DNA of 64,000 bases, taken from assembly GCA_017601225.1 (NCBI GenBank), contig JAFNIX010000002.1, positions 52,903-116,902 of the forward strand. Direction: 5' to 3'. The stretch comes from Candidatus Brockarchaeota archaeon. GTDB taxonomy: Archaea > Thermoproteota > EX4484-205 > JAAOZP01. Of this stretch, positions 14,781 through 23,125 are shown piece after piece (position 1 is the first letter of the stretch; each line of letters begins with the position of its first letter). The translations under genes were made by a program, and so were the position numbers. The notes under the pieces are model-generated. The model was not told where the DNA came from. It searched no databases and saw only the letters and a list, made by a program, of their open reading frames with translations.

Positions 14781-14984
14781 TTAATCAAGCATATTTAGAT
14801 AGTTCTCCAATTCCAATACACGCAGTTTAACCCTGCTCAAGATTTCCCTCAGCTCCTCGAAGTCCCCGCGCGATAAAGCAGTATTGAGGCTCTGAACCAT
14901 CTTGGATAGTTCTTCAGCACACTCTATTGTCTGCTTAATTCTTCCACACCCTTCCTTTTCAGCCCGACTCGTCTCGTCCTGCAT
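14781..14984 (-). CDS. Hypothetical small helical protein (67 aa)
   Basis: ORF only. It overlaps the 3' end of the upstream gene by 26 nt. Confidence 0.35.
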   Translation of the reverse strand: MQDETSRAEKEGCGRIKQTIECAEELSKMVQSLNTALSRGDFEELREILSRVKLRVLELENYLNMLD

Positions 14985-15594
14985 TTTTAACCACCTGTAG
15001 CGCCACCTTATAAATGTCTCTCATGCTAGCCTCCTTGCTAATAATCCCAAAGCCAGCAGCAGCTGAACCCTGAAATGCCTCGTCCAAAGCCTTTAGAATA
15101 AGCCTATCAGCTACAGGCTTCTGCCTACCCATCAGCATGTTTACGATTAGAATAGCCTCTTCGTCTGAAGCTTTATTGAGAAGCCCGGTTAAGCTTTTAA
15201 CCTTGAAGGCGATGCTGCTCTTCCCGCTTATCCTACAAGTCTCAAGCATCCCAAGATAAGCCTGGTCTATGCTCAACCCCTTCTCGAGAAGTGTGCTGCT
15301 CCTCCTGCTTAAAACATCCTTCAGTCTCCCGGATTGCACTAATCCTTCAGCAACATCCTGTTTGAGAAGCGTTATTCCGGCTAAGGCTTCTGAAACTATT
15401 CTTTTTAACAAGTGTGTCCCGATAAGCCTTGAAGCCTCTCCGAAATCCATCCTCATTATCCTGAGAAGTGTTTCGATGCAATTGGCGTCAACCTTTTTAA
15501 ATAAGGCTGCGATCTCACGGACAGCATCCTGCTCTTCCAACATGCTCAACCGGTTGAGCACCTCAGCCACGTCCCTGAACCCCCTGCTCCCCAT
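14959..15594 (-). CDS. Stand-alone homolog of the ATP-dependent DNA ligase N-terminal DNA-binding domain
   Basis: From memory it is collinear with archaeal LigA N-terminal domains: F..VAEVLNRL start, LIGTHLLKRIVS versus LGIGEKFLIKAIS, and GLSIDQAYLGMLETCRISGKSSIAFKVKSLTGLLNKASDEEAILIVNML versus LTVDEVY..L..A...G.GS...K...L..LL.KA.P.EAKFLVRF. It ends where the adenylation domain would begin. The ATG at 15594 avoids overlap with the upstream gene. Confidence 0.5.
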   Translation of the reverse strand: MGSRGFRDVAEVLNRLSMLEEQDAVREIAALFKKVDANCIETLLRIMRMDFGEASRLIGTHLLKRIVSEALAGITLLKQDVAEGLVQSGRLKDVLSRRSSTLLEKGLSIDQAYLGMLETCRISGKSSIAFKVKSLTGLLNKASDEEAILIVNMLMGRQKPVADRLILKALDEAFQGSAAAGFGIISKEASMRDIYKVALQVVKNAGRDESG

Positions 15595-15595
15595 A

Positions 15596-16117
15596 TTACT
15601 GGAACTCCTCATACAGGATCTTCATGCTTATAGGCGGCGGGGGTCGGCCGCGGGGCGCCGAATCCGAATAACCCAAGGGAGTGAGTGAAACCGCCCTATA
15701 TCCTTTAGGAGCGTTGAGAATCTCTTCAACCCGTCTCTCGTCAAAAGCGCCGATCCAGCATGTTGACAACCCTAGGCTTGTGGCAGCCAGCATAAGGTTC
15801 TCCATAGATGCGCCAACGTCCAGAATACTGTAGAGTTCAATCCCCCTCTTCCCGTATGCCGAAGCCTCTTCCAGCGAAACCAAGTACACTATCACGATGG
15901 GGGCTTGAGATATGAAAGTCTGGTTTAAAGCAGCCTCAGCGATCCGCCTTATCTTATCCTCATCCGTTACGACAACTATCCTGTAGGGATGTATGTCTCC
16001 CGCTGAGGGAGCCATGAGGGCTGCTTCAAGAACCCTGTTGACCAGTTCTTTAGGAACCGGTTTCTTTAAGAACGACCTCACGCTCCTCCTTTTCGAGATG
16101 CATTCAAACGTGTCCAA
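15596..16117 (-). CDS. Nitroreductase-family protein
   Basis: RRSVRSFLKKPVPKELVNRVLEAALMAPSAGDIHPYRIVVV is a canonical nitroreductase N-terminus. Confidence 0.85.
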   Translation of the reverse strand: MDTFECISKRRSVRSFLKKPVPKELVNRVLEAALMAPSAGDIHPYRIVVVTDEDKIRRIAEAALNQTFISQAPIVIVYLVSLEEASAYGKRGIELYSILDVGASMENLMLAATSLGLSTCWIGAFDERRVEEILNAPKGYRAVSLTPLGYSDSAPRGRPPPPISMKILYEEFQ

Positions 16118-16541: not shown

Positions 16542-16614
16542 TTAGGCTTTGTTCGTAGAAAGATTCTCCAGGATGCTTAAAAACCTTTTCAACCCCGCGG
16601 ATAAAAAAGAACCT

Positions 16615-17031
16615 TCAGGTTTCAACCCTAGCCTCCTCAGCTTTAAACTCGAACACGATGTCCCTTAGACTATCCGCAATCGCTTTTAAACGCTCCTTCA
16701 ATGGGTAGTTCTTGTCAATATCCGCAATAACCTCCCACTCAGCCAGTTTACCTGGCACCAGGGTTGTTGAGCTCGTTGCCACGAGGTTTATTCCTGATGA
16801 AGCGAGCATGTTAGCAACCTTCGCCAATGAGCCTGGTTGATCAGATATTTTGAAAACTATTCTGACGAAGTTGCCGCCCTGCCGGGCGGGCATCAGCGTG
16901 AAAACGTTTCTCTCAGAATCATATGTTCCAACGGTCTCGGACTGCGGCCTAAGCCCCATAAGGTCTCTAACGGCTTGAGGAATAAGTATTCTACCCCTAT
17001 CATCTATTTTAAGCAGGTATGTTTTCGGCAT
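16615..17031 (-). CDS. AbrB/SpoVT-type DNA-binding domain fused to an ACT domain
   Basis: N-terminus KIDDRGRILIPQAVRDLMGL is a swapped-hairpin AbrB/MazE motif. C-terminus VRIVFKISDQPGSLAKVANMLASSGINLV is an ACT-like ligand-binding motif. Confidence 0.7.
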   Translation of the reverse strand: MPKTYLLKIDDRGRILIPQAVRDLMGLRPQSETVGTYDSERNVFTLMPARQGGNFVRIVFKISDQPGSLAKVANMLASSGINLVATSSTTLVPGKLAEWEVIADIDKNYPLKERLKAIADSLRDIVFEFKAEEARVET

Positions 17032-17035
17032 TCTT

Positions 17036-17052
17036 GCCTCCTCTTAGGAGGC
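17036..17052. promoter_or_regulatory. Perfect inverted repeat GCCTCC-TCTTA-GGAGGC in the divergent AbrB-ACT/hisC intergenic region
   Basis: Read directly from the sequence. On the minus strand, the half nearer the AbrB-ACT gene is a GGAGG Shine-Dalgarno-like element a few nt upstream of the AbrB-ACT ATG (17031). Confidence 0.45.
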
Positions 17053-17062
17053 TTGGGAAAAG

Positions 17063-17070
17063 CTTATAAA
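17063..17070. promoter_or_regulatory. TATA-like box CTTATAAA (TTTATAAG on the minus strand), candidate shared divergent promoter element
   Basis: It lies 31 nt upstream of the hisC ATG (17101) and 32 nt upstream of the AbrB-ACT ATG (17031). It is the only A/T-rich octamer in the 69-bp spacer. Confidence 0.4.
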
Positions 17071-17100
17071 CATGTGGGTCTCCAATGGAACATCATTCCC

Positions 17101-18090
17101 ATGATATTCCCACTAAGGCCTATACGCCTAGACACGAACGAAAACCCGTTCGGCCCTTCTCCCAGGGCTATAAATGCCTATTTTAAGACGGCTATGCGTC
17201 TAAACAGGTATCCGGACTACGTTGAGTACAGAGAGTTTATCTCCAGCCGTCTAGGGCTAAAGCCACGGGAGGTTCTTCCAACACCAGGTAGCGACAGAGG
17301 GCTGCAGACCCTGCTGCAATGCTTGTCGAAAAACTACGCACGCATCGTAATCCCTTCACCAGCCTTCCTTATGTACACACGTTTCTCCAAGCCTTTCTTC
17401 AACAGAGTTGAGCAGCCTCCTTCTTGGCTTGGCAGGGGCTGGGATGCAGTCTTCAGCCTTTCAGGAAGCGACGCTGTCCTATTGTTAGGATCGCCAAACA
17501 ATCCGACGGGGGAGGTTGTTGAAGAGAGCATTGTAAGAAGGTTTCTGGAGGAATTCGGGATGGTTATTGTGGATGAGGCCTATGTTGAGTACTACGGCAA
17601 AAGCTTCGTCTCACTTCTACGCGGCTTCAGCAATCTAGTGTTAGCCAGGACTTTTTCTAAAGCATACGGGTTAGCGGGCTTAAGATCCGGGTATCTTTTA
17701 GGTGAAAGCTCTGTTTTAAGAGAAGTTGAGAAAGCCATGGGGCCTTTCGATGTTCCAGCTCCGGCTGTGGAGGCTTCTAAGGCAGCTTTCGAGGATGAAA
17801 ACTGGCTTAGAATGGTTGTTGAATCAACCTCCCTGAACAGGACCTACATGGTTGAAACGTTGAACAGGCTTGACGGCGTAAGGACGTGTGATTCCAAGGC
17901 GAATTACGTCCCGATCTATGTCGAAGAAGCTCGAAGAGTATTTGAGAAGCTTCTTGCCGAAAATATAAGGGTGCGTTTAGTGACACCTGAGTGGGGGGGA
18001 GTTGAGGAACCGTTTCTCAGAGTCACGGTTGGAACCATGGTTGAGCTGAAATGCTTCCTCGATGCTTTAGGGAGGATTCTGGCAAGTTGA
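17101..18090 (+). CDS. hisC: Histidinol-phosphate aminotransferase
   Basis: LDTNENPFGPSP and the PLP-lysine motif TFSKAYGLAGLRSGY. The ORF-track start at 16837 would overlap the convergent-strand AbrB-ACT gene, so the ATG at 17101 is preferred. Confidence 0.9.
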   Translation: MIFPLRPIRLDTNENPFGPSPRAINAYFKTAMRLNRYPDYVEYREFISSRLGLKPREVLPTPGSDRGLQTLLQCLSKNYARIVIPSPAFLMYTRFSKPFFNRVEQPPSWLGRGWDAVFSLSGSDAVLLLGSPNNPTGEVVEESIVRRFLEEFGMVIVDEAYVEYYGKSFVSLLRGFSNLVLARTFSKAYGLAGLRSGYLLGESSVLREVEKAMGPFDVPAPAVEASKAAFEDENWLRMVVESTSLNRTYMVETLNRLDGVRTCDSKANYVPIYVEEARRVFEKLLAENIRVRLVTPEWGGVEEPFLRVTVGTMVELKCFLDALGRILAS

Positions 18091-18965
18091 GCAGTCAGGT
18101 TTTCCTAGTCCTTCCCAGCAAGGGGAGATTGTTCCAGCCTTCGCTTGATCTACTGGGTTCATCAGGCCTGATAACCTATTTCCCTAATGATCGGAGTTAT
18201 CAAGCGATATCCCGTTTAAAAGGTCTTTCGATAGTGTTCAACCGCGCGGCAGATATTCCCAAGATGGTTGAAAACGGTGTTGTAGACCTAGGCATTACTG
18301 GTAGAGACCTTGTCAAGGAATCAGGCGTAGACGTTGAGGAGATCCTTCCACTCAACTATGGTCATGCTAAGCTAGTGCTCGCAGCACCCTCTTCAAGGTT
18401 CGGCGACCTGAATGACCTGCTTAAAAAAGAAAGCTTCAAGGTGGCGACAGAGTTTCCAAACATAGCGAGAAGCTTCTTTCAAAGCCTGAATGTTAACGCT
18501 GAAATCATAAGTGTTGAAGGAACCTCGGAGACAATGCCGAACCTCGGCCTATCCGACTGCATAGTCTCGGTGATGAGCACCGGCACAACGCTTCTAGTAC
18601 ACGGATTGAAGGTTCTTTCAACAATAATGGACTCGCAGGCAGTTCTAATAGGCAACAGGAACAGCCTTAAAAACCCTGAGAAGCACCCCATTATTGGAAG
18701 CATCATATCAATCATTCAAGCAACCCAGATGGCACAGGGAAAGAAGCTTTTAATGATGAATGTGCCTGAAGAATGTTTGAAGGAAGTTATTAGCTGCCTG
18801 CCCTGCATGAGCGGCCCAACGATCTCTAAAGTAGAGTCTCGGGAACCCATGTGGGAAGTTATCACCGTCGTGGATTCGGACAAGGTTTTCGAAGTGGTTT
18901 ACAACGTTAAAAACAAGGGTGCACGGGATATTCTCGTTCTAAACATCGATAAGGTGATTATTTGA
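18087..18965 (+). CDS. hisG: ATP phosphoribosyltransferase, long form with C-terminal regulatory domain
   Basis: LPSKGRL N-terminal motif and a HisG_C-like C-terminus. The proposed in-frame TTG start at 18087 overlaps the hisC TGA (TTGA). The ATG at 18051 is the alternative. Confidence 0.85.
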   Translation: MSSQVFLVLPSKGRLFQPSLDLLGSSGLITYFPNDRSYQAISRLKGLSIVFNRAADIPKMVENGVVDLGITGRDLVKESGVDVEEILPLNYGHAKLVLAAPSSRFGDLNDLLKKESFKVATEFPNIARSFFQSLNVNAEIISVEGTSETMPNLGLSDCIVSVMSTGTTLLVHGLKVLSTIMDSQAVLIGNRNSLKNPEKHPIIGSIISIIQATQMAQGKKLLMMNVPEECLKEVISCLPCMSGPTISKVESREPMWEVITVVDSDKVFEVVYNVKNKGARDILVLNIDKVII

Positions 18966-19681
18966 TGAAGATAATTCCGTCTATAGACCTGATGGGTTCG
19001 AAGAGAGTTGAGGTAGTCAGCCATACGGTGGATAAGGCTCTTGAAGACTCCGACCCGGTTAAAATAGCAGCATACTGGGAGAAAGCAGGAGCACAAATGA
19101 TTCACCTGGTTGACATAGATGCTGCCTTGAACACTGGGAGAAGTAACACTGGCATTATTAAGAAGGTTATTTGCTCAGTCTCGATACCGGTTCAAGTAGC
19201 AGGCGGAATCAGAAGTAGGAGGCAGGTTGAAGACTTTCTTTCATATGGAGCCTCAAGAATAGTTGTGAGGCTGAAGCCCTGCTCGATGGATGCTGCGGAT
19301 GATTTCTCAGGCTTAGAGAAGATTGTTCTAGGAATAGACTATCTGGGGAGAAACATGTTTAGAGGCATCGGTAAGGAAAGCCTCACTATTAGGGAGGAGG
19401 AAGCAGTCAGCTGGGTCTTAAAGGTTGATGACGCAACAGGTTTGAAAGGAATCCTTCTAACCGATGTTGGGAGAGAAGGCTCGCTAGCAGGGTTGCGCAG
19501 TGAAACGCTTTCATTCCTATCCATGCTTAGGGAAACAGGCTTGGAGCTCATGTATGCTGGAGGAGTTTCTTCCCTAGAAGACATTTTGACTTTAAAAAAG
19601 ACTGGGGTGGAGGGCGTGGTCGTCGGGAAAGCTTTATACAACGGGCTGATAAGCCTAGAGGAGTTAAGGAGGATCGTTTAG
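18965..19681 (+). CDS. hisA: ProFAR isomerase (HisA)
   Basis: KIIPSIDL start, VQVAGGIRS, and YAGGVSSLEDI phosphate-binding motifs. The ATG overlaps the hisG stop (TGATG). Confidence 0.85.
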   Translation: MKIIPSIDLMGSKRVEVVSHTVDKALEDSDPVKIAAYWEKAGAQMIHLVDIDAALNTGRSNTGIIKKVICSVSIPVQVAGGIRSRRQVEDFLSYGASRIVVRLKPCSMDAADDFSGLEKIVLGIDYLGRNMFRGIGKESLTIREEEAVSWVLKVDDATGLKGILLTDVGREGSLAGLRSETLSFLSMLRETGLELMYAGGVSSLEDILTLKKTGVEGVVVGKALYNGLISLEELRRIV

Positions 19682-19683
19682 AA

Positions 19684-20265
19684 TTGAATAGAACATCCAT
19701 GGTTCGCAGAGAGACTGCTGAAACAGTAGTTGAGCTGGAGCTCACCTTGGATGGTGAAGGCTTGCACACTATAGAGACACCCTACCCCGTGTTCAACCAT
19801 CTGCTCGGAAGCATGATCAGGTTCTCAGGCTTCAACCTTAGGCTCAAAGCTAGGAACATGGTTGAATGCGATGAGCACCATTTAATCGAGGATGTCGCAA
19901 TAGCTTTAGGCGAGGCCTTAAGGAGGGCTCTCGGTGAGAAAAAAGGAGTGAATAGGTTCGGCTATTCTATTGTCCCTATGGACGAGGTGCTTGCATGTGT
20001 CTCATTAGACTTGAGTGGAAGACCGTTCTTCTCACACAACATGCGGTTTAACCAGACAATGATCGGCAACATGGGAACCAGCATGATTCCACACTTCTTC
20101 CGGAGCCTTTCAAACTCATCCGGCTCTACGCTTCACATCCTGATCTTTAGAAACGGTGATCCGCACCATTTGGCCGAAGCCGTTTTTAAAGCCGCGGGCC
20201 TTGCTTTCAAACAGGCGGTTATAGTAACGGGTTCAACAATCCCGAGTGAAAAGGGGGTCTTGTGA
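19684..20265 (+). CDS. hisB: Imidazoleglycerol-phosphate dehydratase
   Basis: [19 protein letters not shown] and the [12 protein letters not shown] metal-binding histidine motifs. Start is either the TTG at 19684 or the ATG at 19699. Confidence 0.9.
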
Positions 20266-20269
20266 AAGA

Positions 20270-21028
20270 ATGGGTTTAACCAAGAGGATAATTCCATGTC
20301 TTGACGTTTACGACGGTGTTGTAGTTAAAGGCGTCAAGTTTTCAAACCTTAAGAGAATAGGAGACCCCGCGGAGCTCGCTGTTAAATACATGGAGCAGTA
20401 TGCCGACGAAATAGTTTTCCTAGATATTTCTGCCACCCCGGAGGAAAGGGAAACCATGGTGGAAGTGGTGAAGAGAACCGCTGAGAACCTTTTCATCCCC
20501 CTGACTGTTGGGGGAGGGGTTAGAAGCGTGGAGGATTTCGGTAAGCTTCTTAGAGCAGGCGCAGACAAGGTTTCAGTCAATACTGCAGCCGTCAAGGATA
20601 GGAGCCTGATTAGAAGGGCTAGCAGTATCTTTGGACAGCAATGCGTAGTTGTTGCTGTCGACGCTAAAAGAGTTGGGGAAGGATGGGAGGTGTATGTTAA
20701 AGCTGGAAAAGAGCCGACTGGGCTTGACGCGCTTGAATGGATTAAGACGTGTGAATACGAGGGTGCTGGCGAAATACTTTTAACAAGCATAGATGCGGAC
20801 GGCACTAGACTGGGCTACGATGTCGAACTCTTGCAGGCGGCTAGGAGAAGCGTCAACATCCCTATAATAGCCTCGGGCGGAGCCGGCTCACTGCAACACG
20901 TTTACGAGGCCCTTACCAGAGGAGGTGCTGACGCTGCACTCATCGCCTCACTCCTACACTATGATCAGTACAGTGTTTTAGAAATTAAGAAATGGCTAAA
21001 GGAAAGAGGGGTTGAAGTAAGGCTTTGA
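20270..21028 (+). CDS. hisF: Imidazole glycerol phosphate synthase, cyclase subunit
   Basis: [25 protein letters not shown] motifs. The ATG at 20270 ([13 protein letters not shown]) is preferred over 20246. Confidence 0.9.
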
Positions 21029-21309
21029 ACCTCGAGTATCTGGCTGAGCTTTTCGAAGTCGTGAAAAACAGGGTTCGAGAGAAGCCTAAGGAGTCTTACG
21101 TCGCGAGGATCGTTGAAGGAGGGATGGACAGGGTTCTCGGAAAATTCGGGGAGGAGGCTTTTGAATTTGCCTCAGCCGTCCAGGGTAACGGTGACAAGGT
21201 TGCGGAGGCAGCCGACCTTTTATTCCACTATCTCATTGTGTTGGCAGCATCCGGAGTAGAGCTTGATGAAGTTGTGAGAGAGCTTGAGAGAAGGCGTAGA
21301 CACCGATGA
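21025..21309 (+). CDS. hisE: Phosphoribosyl-ATP pyrophosphatase
   Basis: 94-aa all-helical protein with [10 protein letters not shown]...KFGEEAFE...[13 protein letters not shown], typical of HisE. The TTG start overlaps the hisF stop. Confidence 0.8.
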
Positions 21310-21926
21310 AAAAAATACTGGTTCTTGATTGCGGGGTCGGAAACCTTGCAAGCATAAGCGCGTCCCTTAAGAAAGCAGGAGCAGACGTGAGAATCTCGTC
21401 AATAGTCCCTGAAGAGGGTTTCGACGGCCTAGTTATTCCAGGGGTTGGAAGCTATTCCGCCGCCTTTAAGAAGGTCGACGAGCAACGGGGAAGGATTAGG
21501 AGTATTGTGGAGAATGGTCGCCCAGTTCTCGGCGTATGCTTAGGCCTGCAACTAATGTTCAACGGAAGCGAAGAGGGAAAACAGGATGAAGAAGGCCTTG
21601 GGTTTTTCAGAGGATTTGTTAAAAAGATTCCTGTTAAAAGGCTTCCACACATAGGCTGGAACAGCTTAGAAACAGTCAGGAAATCAGTTATTCTGAACGG
21701 CTTAGAGAATGGGGCTTACATGTATTTTGTACACTCCTACGCTCCTTTGGATTATGATGAGGATGACGCTGTCGCTTACGCCAGCTACGGAGGCATAAGG
21801 TTCCCGGTTGCGTTCGAGAAGGGAAAAGTTTTCGGCGTGCAGTTCCATCCTGAGAAAAGCTGGCAGCCAGGTCTAAGAATCCTCAGAAACTTCCTAAGCC
21901 TCTGCGAGGGTGGGAAAAGTGTTTAA
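21306..21926 (+). CDS. hisH: Imidazole glycerol phosphate synthase, glutamine amidotransferase subunit
   Basis: ILVLDCGVGNLASI, catalytic Cys in GVCLGLQLMF, and His-Glu in QFHPEKS. The ATG overlaps the hisE stop (ATGA). Confidence 0.9.
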   Translation: MKKILVLDCGVGNLASISASLKKAGADVRISSIVPEEGFDGLVIPGVGSYSAAFKKVDEQRGRIRSIVENGRPVLGVCLGLQLMFNGSEEGKQDEEGLGFFRGFVKKIPVKRLPHIGWNSLETVRKSVILNGLENGAYMYFVHSYAPLDYDEDDAVAYASYGGIRFPVAFEKGKVFGVQFHPEKSWQPGLRILRNFLSLCEGGKSV

Positions 21927-22326
21927 AACAAGCGTTAAGAAAACAAGGAGGATCATTTCCCAACTCAATTTTGAAAAAGGCTTGATCCCTGTGGTGGCGA
22001 GAAACTTTGACGGGGAAGTCCTGATGATAGCGTTCATGAATAAGAATGCTCTTTTAAAAACTCTTTCAACAGGCTTAATGCACTACTATTCTAGAAGAAT
22101 GAAAAAAATATGGATGAAAGGGGGGGTATCGGGCTTTGTGCAGAAGGTTCTTGAGGTAAGGGTCAACTGTGAAAACAACAGCCTACTCTTCACGGTTAAG
22201 CAGGAGGGCCCCGGAGCGTGCCACATGGGCTATAAAACTTGTTTCTACAGGAAAATTCTTAATAGCGGTAGGTTTAAAAAGGTTGAGAAAAAGGTTTTCA
22301 ACCCTAAGCGGGTATATAGGAAGTAG
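21910..22326 (+). CDS. hisI: Phosphoribosyl-AMP cyclohydrolase
   Basis: GLIPVVARNFDGEVLMIAFMNKNAL...YYSRRMKKIWMKG...CHMGYKTCFY. The GTG start overlaps the end of hisH by 17 nt. Confidence 0.85.
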   Translation: MGKVFKTSVKKTRRIISQLNFEKGLIPVVARNFDGEVLMIAFMNKNALLKTLSTGLMHYYSRRMKKIWMKGGVSGFVQKVLEVRVNCENNSLLFTVKQEGPGACHMGYKTCFYRKILNSGRFKKVEKKVFNPKRVYRK

Positions 22327-22387: not shown

Positions 22388-23125
22388 ATGAGCGATGAAC
22401 TGGTTCCCTACCTCAGCGAACTGCTCACAGTAGCCAAGCAGGTGTCTATGAAGAAGATTATTAGCGATGTTGTTTTGGCTGAGCAGCCCTTCATAGTCCT
22501 GAGAAACTGGCGTGAGAAGTTCGGGGTCTCTCAGAAAACGCTGGCTAGCAAAATGGGGATTTCAGCCTCAGTAATAAGCGACTACGAGACAGGCAGGAGG
22601 AGAAACCCGGGGATAGGATTTCTGAGAAACTACGTTCAAAACCTTGTTGAAAGCGATGCTGAAAGAGGCGGTGCACACCTGATAGACCTTCTGAAGACAG
22701 AGCCTATTCTTAAAGGAATAATTCTAGACATGAAAGAGTATTCCAAGCCTGTTTCAATGCGTAAGGTTGTTGAGGCGGTTGAGGGAAAGGTGGCAACTTT
22801 CCCCGATATGCTTGACGACTTTGTTTTCGGCCACACGGTTCTCGACAGCGTTAAAGCAATACTTTACTTCAAATGGTATGACTTGGTTAATGTTTTCGGA
22901 TACACGAACATAAGGACGCTTGTCTTTACGAATGTTCAACACGGTAGAAGCCCCCTGGTCGGGATACATCTTTACCCGTTTAAGCCTAAGATGATTGTTC
23001 TCCACGGCCCTAAGGAACTTGACCCGGTTGCCACGGAGATAGCGAAGGTTGACGGGATAGTTGTAGCACTGTCAAAACTCGGCTCAACGAGAGAACTTAT
23101 AGAAAGGCTTACGTCCCTAGGCTAA
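22388..23125 (+). CDS. XRE-family helix-turn-helix protein with archaeal C-terminal domain
   Basis: HTH_3-type motif REKFGVSQKTLASKMGISASVISDYETGRR, followed by a ~150-aa uncharacterised domain. Confidence 0.7.
   Translation: MSDELVPYLSELLTVAKQVSMKKIISDVVLAEQPFIVLRNWREKFGVSQKTLASKMGISASVISDYETGRRRNPGIGFLRNYVQNLVESDAERGGAHLIDLLKTEPILKGIILDMKEYSKPVSMRKVVEAVEGKVATFPDMLDDFVFGHTVLDSVKAILYFKWYDLVNVFGYTNIRTLVFTNVQHGRSPLVGIHLYPFKPKMIVLHGPKELDPVATEIAKVDGIVVALSKLGSTRELIERLTSLG

Follow-up and report, generated by a model that had tools for sequence, protein, structure and literature searches.

We have compared a small gene beside the histidine operon of a Candidatus Brockarchaeota archaeon with its homologues in other Thermoproteota, and conclude, with a probability of about two in three, that it encodes a ligand-sensing transcription factor dedicated to that operon, a repressor that would bind phased boxes in the his promoter with histidine as its co-repressor. 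The gene lies in a stretch of 64,000 nucleotides, referred to here as the window, and positions given without a contig name are positions in that stretch. Our comparisons establish the domain architecture of the protein, the linkage of its gene to histidine genes, and an operator that co-occurs with the gene; the feature is confirmed as an AbrB/SpoVT plus ACT protein beside the his operon. A sequence-only reading of the window had offered the protein as a candidate regulator of this operon. It keeps that standing, and to it the comparison of genomes adds support for a functional link, through gene linkage, a conserved operator and the co-occurrence of the two.

The AbrB-ACT protein

The regulator gene (P0001) occupies positions 16615..17031 on the (-) strand, begins with an ATG start codon and specifies a product of 138 aa. 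It is present in a single copy in its own genome. An oligo-T run is read from the sequence just past its stop codon (16596..16601, (-) strand); possibly, this run serves as an archaeal terminator, and the regulator gene would then be monocistronic. The fusion of an AbrB/SpoVT domain to an ACT domain, claimed for this gene from its sequence, was borne out, with the open reading frame, a family profile and a Pfam match to the ACT domain all in agreement.

The N-terminal SpoVT/AbrB-type domain extends over approximately residues 1-50 (16882..17031, (-) strand), carries a D-x-x-G-R-I-x-I-P...R motif, and was recognized by means of the family profile. On the window protein alone, TIGR01439 matched residues 8-29 with 23.7 bits, which is below its cut-off of 28.3, and PF04014 gave no match at E<=0.01. 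We compared a profile of 64 aligned homologues with the PDB, and observed that its best match was the N-domain of SpoVT (2ro5, E 1.3e-6); AbrB (1z0r, E 7.8e-6) and the archaeal AbrB proteins 5itj, 5itm and 2l66 were also matched. These AbrB-type matches use the first 47 positions of the profile, and the remaining positions match ACT domains. PF04014 was matched by 50 of the 64 homologues and PF01842 likewise by 50 of 64, while 43 of the 64 relatives matched PF02381 (MraZ). In the family alignment D10, G13, R14, P18 and R22 are nearly invariant, and the G-R-x-x-I-P plus Arg motif is retained in the window protein. The assignment of a predicted SpoVT/AbrB swapped-hairpin domain to the window protein is thus made through the family and not from the single sequence; we regard it as settled because the aligned family matches SpoVT/AbrB, the single sequence being below threshold. 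In an AlphaFold2 monomer model of the protein (pLDDT 90.4, pTM 0.72), the N-domain is arranged as strand-helix-strand-strand, with the helix at residues 19-25 and strands at 33-38 and 43-48; its first hairpin appears as bridge residues only.

The C-terminal ACT domain extends over approximately residues 54-133 (16633..16872, (-) strand) and contains a D-x-P-G-x-L loop and a signature of S88 and W99. PF01842 matched residues 57-119 of the window protein with 32.4 bits, above the 27-bit cut-off, and D64, G67 and L69 are nearly invariant in the family alignment. The model shows the beta-alpha-beta-beta-alpha-beta order of the ACT fold, with a strand at 54-63, a helix at 68-78, strands at 82-92 and 96-105, a helix at 111-121 and a strand at 126-133. 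The profile score and the predicted fold, with its Gly-containing beta1-alpha1 ligand loop, both argue for an ACT domain. Foldseek searches with the model returned the ACT domains of PGDH, IlvN, aspartokinase and Rel, which include serine-, valine-, threonine- and phenylalanine-binding examples, and also NikR (2wve); they returned no solved structure in which AbrB and ACT are combined. Histidine is the most likely ligand of this domain, as judged solely from the target operon.

The histidine operon and its linkage to the regulator gene

The predicted target operon, hisC-G-A-B-F-E-H-I (17101..22326), is composed of hisC (17101-18090), hisG (18051-18965), hisA (18962-19681), hisB (19684-20265), hisF (20246-21028), hisE (21025-21309), hisH (21306-21926) and hisI (21910-22326), all on the (+) strand and overlapping or abutting each other. 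All eight products were identified by Pfam, in agreement with the earlier description of hisC as the head of an eight-gene histidine operon. The start of hisC is the ATG at 17101; indels just downstream of it are all multiples of three across the genus, and because these in-frame indels support this start codon, the spacer between the two divergent genes is 69 bp (17032-17100), as had been claimed. The hisD gene of the same genome lies elsewhere (C52:22591-23850); none of the boxes described below was found upstream of it, so that hisD is not an obvious member of the regulon.

Two other reading frames of the neighbourhood may be mentioned here. A protein of 245 aa with an HTH_3 domain at its N-terminus is encoded 62 bp after hisI (22388-23125, (+) strand), and its C-terminal part has no assigned domain; an HTH_3 protein also follows the his operon in family f4 and not in other families, and the protein in the window could be a second, order-specific regulator. 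On the far side, a 217-aa ORF (14959-15612, (-) strand) matches only PF04675, the ATP-dependent DNA ligase N-terminal domain, with no adenylation domain, and is conserved in a close relative (L003).

Because both flanks of the regulator gene are syntenic within the genus and the order, comparison within the genus says little, and we therefore searched 301 sampled Thermoproteota genomes for homologues, with the requirement that a match cover both domains. Homologues of 23-41% identity were found in 90 of the 301 genomes (41 of 123 genera), and all but two of the 90 carrier genomes had a single AbrB-ACT match. The loci were compared over 8 kb on each side of 40 homologues which, together with the window, made up 41 representative loci. 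The gene is head-to-head with a his operon at 15 of these 41 loci, from 10 families, and a comparison of hisB (IGPD) coordinates adds family f6, which brings the his-linked families to 11; the his-linked homologues across these families are 30-40% identical. The first his gene in the linked families, as identified by Pfam, is hisC, hisG or a HisRS-like gene of the hisZ type, and hisG stands at the far end of the operon in some of them. Genes on the other side of the regulator are not conserved between families. Only the his side of the neighbourhood is thus kept across families, and it is kept through rearrangements of the his genes themselves. The sequence-only reading had proposed, as a check, to see whether the AbrB-ACT gene travels with his genes in relatives; it does, being divergent from differently ordered his operons in 11 families. 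The same reading would have been damaged by copies of the gene at loci unrelated to his genes. Such copies were found in two situations only: in a sister clade, distinct from the group of the window gene, and as unlinked copies in genomes whose his operons still carry the boxes.

In a maximum-likelihood tree of the family, 18 sequences of families f7, f16, f20, f24 and f33 form a supported clade (97/90), referred to here as the sister clade, and those of f11 and f38 form a second one (98/95); all his-linked sequences fall in the remainder of the tree, where the branching is not resolved. At the equivalents of window residues 88 and 99, Ser and Trp are present in 22 of 22 his-type sequences, within the motifs SESRT and AEW, and Cys and Cys in all 18 sister-clade sequences. 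The window protein carries the Ser/Trp signature (S88, W99). At 13 of the 18 sister-clade loci (loci named for this clade are L047, L054, L057, L061, L063, L065-L069, L071 and L072) a DUF72 gene lies within ~300 bp; it is downstream and co-directional in 12, near XPB and PCNA. Also, hisB was found in none of 13 genomes of family f7, nor in most of those of f16 and f24, and there were no boxes at the his operon of one sister-clade genome (L086). As judged from these sequences, the sister clade is distinct from the group of the window gene and does not fit the picture of a his regulator; its members may be sensors, of redox state or of a metal, that put the same DNA-binding domain to another use.

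The window protein is itself a fast-evolving member of the family: its branch, at 2.86 changes per column, is long, and its best identity is 36%. It is without the conserved his-type residues in two motifs, SESRT being replaced by TSSTT and RRG by VPG, and because these residues are lost, its ligand pocket may differ from that of other his-type members.

The operator

The sole TATA-like element in the 69-bp spacer is a near-palindromic box, TTATAAA (17064..17070, assigned to neither strand), with a purine-rich, BRE-like GGAAAAG just upstream of it. It is invariant in 16 sequences from the genus, and we infer that it acts as a promoter. Directly downstream of the TATA box lies operator box 1, TGTGGGT (17073..17079, (+) strand), which is also invariant in the 16 sequences while its flanks vary, and which has the same placement in other families. 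Operator box 2, TCCCAT (reverse complement ATGGGA; 17097..17102, (-) strand), is genus-invariant and overlaps the hisC start codon, and operator box 3, TCCCAC (reverse complement GTGGGA; 17108..17113, (-) strand), identified in the genus alignment, lies within hisC codons 3-5. Boxes 2 and 3 are 11 bp apart and in inverted orientation. A weak box 0, TTGGGAA (17053..17059, (+) strand), is found just upstream of the TATA box and 21 bp from box 1; only its GGAAA is genus-invariant. It resembles the GTGGGAAAAG-TATA arrangement at the unlinked loci of family f11, and is taken as a box only tentatively.

The 16 genus sequences share two invariant blocks, GGAAA-CTTATAAA-yATGTGGGT, which contains the TATA box and box 1, and TCCCATG-nnn-TTCCCA, which contains boxes 2 and 3; ~13 variable bases separate the two. 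Within box 3, the TTC CCA sequence is invariant including third codon positions and neighbouring hisC codons vary freely, and the invariance of these third positions therefore suggests that the DNA itself is constrained. In the window, TTATAAAYATGTGGGT was found once (0 expected) and the box 2-3 pair once (0.16 expected), and the pattern of three boxes is unique in the 2.3-Mb genome from which the window comes.

A short ORF that begins MEHHSHD (17085-17186, (+) strand) overlaps the hisC start in the -1 frame relative to hisC. We considered this His-rich ORF, with its ATG at 17085, as a leader peptide and rejected it: the start is ATG or GTG in only 9 of the 16 genus sequences, being restricted to the sub-clade close to the window, and hisC keeps a conserved ATG of its own. 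From the alignment, the conserved TCCCATG box probably gives rise to this ORF incidentally.

Boxes were also seen at two other places in the same genome, and Rfam found nothing at these loci. At C3:47779-47794 and C3:51835-51850 (L109 ~2780 and ~6836), a TATA box is followed by TCCCATTATTTTCCCA, with boxes 11 bp apart; these sites are in duplicated promoters, those of a pair of paralogous DUF6785/DUF6784 membrane proteins of 669 aa, which may be additional targets of the regulator or may carry the boxes by chance. At C17:19709-19728 (L110 ~2210-2229), ATGGGAGGATGATGGGAA contains a pair of boxes, likewise 11 bp apart, and directly precedes the ATG of an ORF of 281 aa with no assigned function. 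A small stand-alone AbrB-like ORF (C17:21287-21430) lies ~1.5 kb from the latter ORF.

The shared spacer of the other his-linked families contains a TATA box and, after it, from two to four (G/T/A)TGGG boxes that are spaced by 11 bp and repeated in direct or inverted orientation. A phased pair is present within 150 bp upstream at 14 of 15 his-linked loci, as compared with 19 of 4007 background windows from the same loci, figures that are to be read with the understanding that the motif was defined post hoc from the linked loci and that the genomes compared are related and hence not independent. A TATA box is recognisable at 12 of the his-linked loci, and at these the first box begins 9-22 bp downstream of the TATA start. 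Because the motif had been defined after inspection of linked loci, we turned to fresh loci. The regions surrounding hisB (10-18 kb) were taken from ten genomes of families f11, f17 and f38, in which the regulator gene is unlinked, and each of the 10 contained exactly one phased pair, directly upstream of the first his gene. As a control, we used 20 genomes with a his operon and no AbrB-ACT match; they represent 11 families, one of them a sister family within the same order. A phased pair upstream of the his operon was present in 0 of these 20, and the single phased pair in their 309 kb of his loci is inside hisH. The TATA box of f11 and f38 has the phased pair directly against its upstream (BRE) side, and not downstream of it. 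Finally, phased boxes precede the regulator gene itself at 4 of 26 loci that are not his-linked, three of the four belonging to family f7. In the aggregate, it is the protein family, and not his genes in themselves, that the boxes track; among his-type members, the his operon is marked by boxes both where the regulator gene lies beside it and where it does not.

One oddity was seen just downstream of the phased boxes at his loci of family f11 (L075, L076, L082, L083, L084 and L087). The frame that holds the conserved N-terminus of the hisZ-like first gene (FTRLQTPRGFRD) has no canonical start codon ahead of it, and a short ATG-started ORF, M(M)ERRN-L/S-V/L-H, runs in the -1 frame and ends 0-5 codons past a His codon. 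Taken together, these features imply that HisZ could be made only by way of a +1 shift at NTT-CAY. The hisZ-like gene of family f22 (L050) has an in-frame ATG instead.

Proposed mechanism and comparison with known systems

The AbrB-ACT protein is most likely a ligand-dependent repressor that occludes the his promoter. We infer from the observations above that it is the protein that binds the boxes, that it does so as an oligomer, and that it represses rather than activates. AbrB domains would pair to give swapped-hairpin dimers, and the ACT domains would join such dimers into a higher oligomer, which could match two to four (G/T/A)TGGG boxes that are phased at 11 bp on one face of the helix. 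Box 1 would lie between the TATA box and the start site expected ~25 bp downstream of the TATA box, and boxes 2 and 3 would extend over the region of the start and the opening codons of hisC. Archaeal repressors usually act by blocking recruitment of polymerase, and the bound oligomer would block recruitment of RNA polymerase at the his promoter in this manner. The divergent promoter of the regulator gene would probably be affected too, since the spacer has only one TATA-like element and that element is near-palindromic. Histidine bound to the ACT domain would be the likely co-repressor, by the logic of end-product control. Against the proposal may be set the lost his-type residues of the window protein, the position of hisD away from the operon and without boxes, the placement of the boxes upstream of the TATA box in f11 and f38, and the HTH_3 protein as a second candidate regulator.

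The same protein, bound to the same operator, might instead activate the his genes at low histidine, or respond to some other effector such as a pathway intermediate, a PRPP- or ATP-related signal, or another amino acid. The side of the TATA box against which the phased pair lies in f11 and f38, the upstream or BRE side, is a known binding place of archaeal activators; also, the ACT domain of the window protein differs at several conserved positions from the consensus of the his type, and ACT domains bind varied ligands, as is illustrated by the Foldseek matches. Yet at the 12 his-linked loci with a TATA box, the boxes are either between this element and the start codon or over the start, which is typical of repressors, and end-product control is the usual logic of a dedicated biosynthetic operon. 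We therefore consider activation, or another effector, to be unlikely, though in f11 and f38 the protein might be an activator.

It might also be argued that adjacency reflects inherited gene order, that another factor binds the boxes, and that the AbrB-ACT protein regulates other genes, for example those downstream of its own, aIF1/SUI1 and nitroreductase. The whole neighbourhood is indeed syntenic on both sides within the genus and the order, and the sister clade has no tie to his genes. However, across families only the his side is conserved and the downstream genes differ, the head-to-head position is kept even where the order of his genes is rearranged, the operator is present with an unlinked regulator gene and absent where the gene is absent, and boxes also occur at the family's own promoters in genomes where hisB was not found. 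These points make the argument from inherited order quite improbable. Close homologues are named at JGI as the 'antitoxin component of YhaV-PrlF', and relatives give weak matches to PF04014 (MazE_antitoxin), which would suggest the AbrB-type antitoxin of a toxin-antitoxin pair. We give this suggestion hardly any credence: the C-terminal half of the protein is an ACT domain and not a toxin-binding tail, and nearly every carrier genome has one copy of the gene. An antitoxin of the AbrB, PrlF or MazE type was rejected on gene context as well, the neighbours in the window being SUI1, nitroreductase and hisC, and relatives having varying downstream genes and no recurring toxin; the antitoxin label of relatives is thus unsupported by its gene context.

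We retain, then, the proposal of a histidine-responsive repressor of the his operon. The chances seem to us evenly balanced for the broader proposal that his-type AbrB-ACT proteins (Ser88/Trp99) are the histidine repressor of much of the Thermoproteota, that GTGGGA-N5-GTGGG is their core-promoter operator, and that the Cys/Cys sister clade is a separate redox or metal sensor. If this broader proposal is correct, no dedicated regulator of histidine would have been described in Archaea before these proteins, their regulon could be read from sequence alone, and the sister clade, with its two invariant cysteines, would share their DNA-binding specificity. The family offers a candidate protein, a defined operator and a prediction of which genomes use that operator, and in the combination of AbrB with ACT the ligand-responsive transcription factors of archaea, of which few are listed, gain a sensor architecture that is uncharacterised. 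Also, an operator that lies over the TATA box and the transcription start region is well suited to mechanistic work on archaeal repression.

Among curated models, NF006352 (PRK08577, 'hypothetical protein', 136 positions) is the only one with the AbrB plus ACT architecture, and it carries no function. It matched residues 4-124 of the window protein, and thus both domains; membership was rejected, the score of 81.6 bits (80.8 in the genome search) being below the equivalog cut-off of 140 bits. Relatives are named in databases as 'AbrB family transcriptional regulator' or 'ACT domain-containing protein', or carry the antitoxin label. The full-text literature that we searched contained no paper in which AbrB is brought together with 'ACT domain' or with archaeal histidine biosynthesis, and no described regulator of archaeal histidine biosynthesis. 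On comparative grounds, the AbrB-ACT protein is a strong candidate for a regulator of the histidine operon, and would be the first of its kind to be known in archaea.

In archaeal regulators of the Lrp type, amino acids are sensed by an ACT-like RAM domain, to which a DNA-binding domain is joined. The role proposed here is the same as that of the archaeal Lrp/AsnC proteins (LysM, for example), which differ in having an HTH in place of the AbrB domain. In bacteria, his genes are controlled by attenuators, T-boxes and the TrpR-type HisR (PMC9413887), the last of these being a histidine-dependent repressor of his genes (PMC9413887). In contrast to the AbrB-ACT protein, HisR recognises a 20-bp palindrome rather than phased GTGGG boxes, and does so with an HTH that has no homology to the AbrB DNA-binding domain. 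Membership in the TrpR family was rejected, in that Pfam and NCBIfam gave no match to a TrpR-type HTH; HisR is a functional analogue only.

The boxes of E. coli MraZ are TGGGN repeats with ~10-bp spacing, and are close to the GTGGG boxes described here. MraZ, the repressor of the bacterial dcw cluster, also has an AbrB-like fold; unlike its boxes, those of the AbrB-ACT family occur in both direct and inverted arrangements. Membership in the MraZ family (PF02381) was rejected, since it requires two tandem AbrB-like repeats in about 150 aa and no sensor, and the present protein has one AbrB domain and an ACT domain. Repression by MraZ is described as the result of its binding to several repeated boxes in the promoter region of its own gene (PMC8475190, citing Eraso 2014). 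NikR, a ligand-dependent repressor, resembles the AbrB-ACT protein in that it joins a small beta-sheet DNA-binding domain to an ACT-fold domain for regulation and oligomerisation, but its N-domain is of the RHH type, its ligand is nickel, and its DNA-binding part has no sequence relationship to that of AbrB-ACT. SpoVT of Bacillus resembles the AbrB-ACT protein in that a swapped-hairpin AbrB domain is fused to a C-terminal sensor of small molecules; it differs in that its sensor is GAF rather than ACT, and its targets are sporulation genes rather than, as predicted here for an archaeal host, an operon for amino-acid biosynthesis. Set beside these systems, to none of whose families it belongs, the AbrB-ACT protein is supported as an uncharacterised ligand-sensing repressor, predicted from comparative evidence that is unusually clean.
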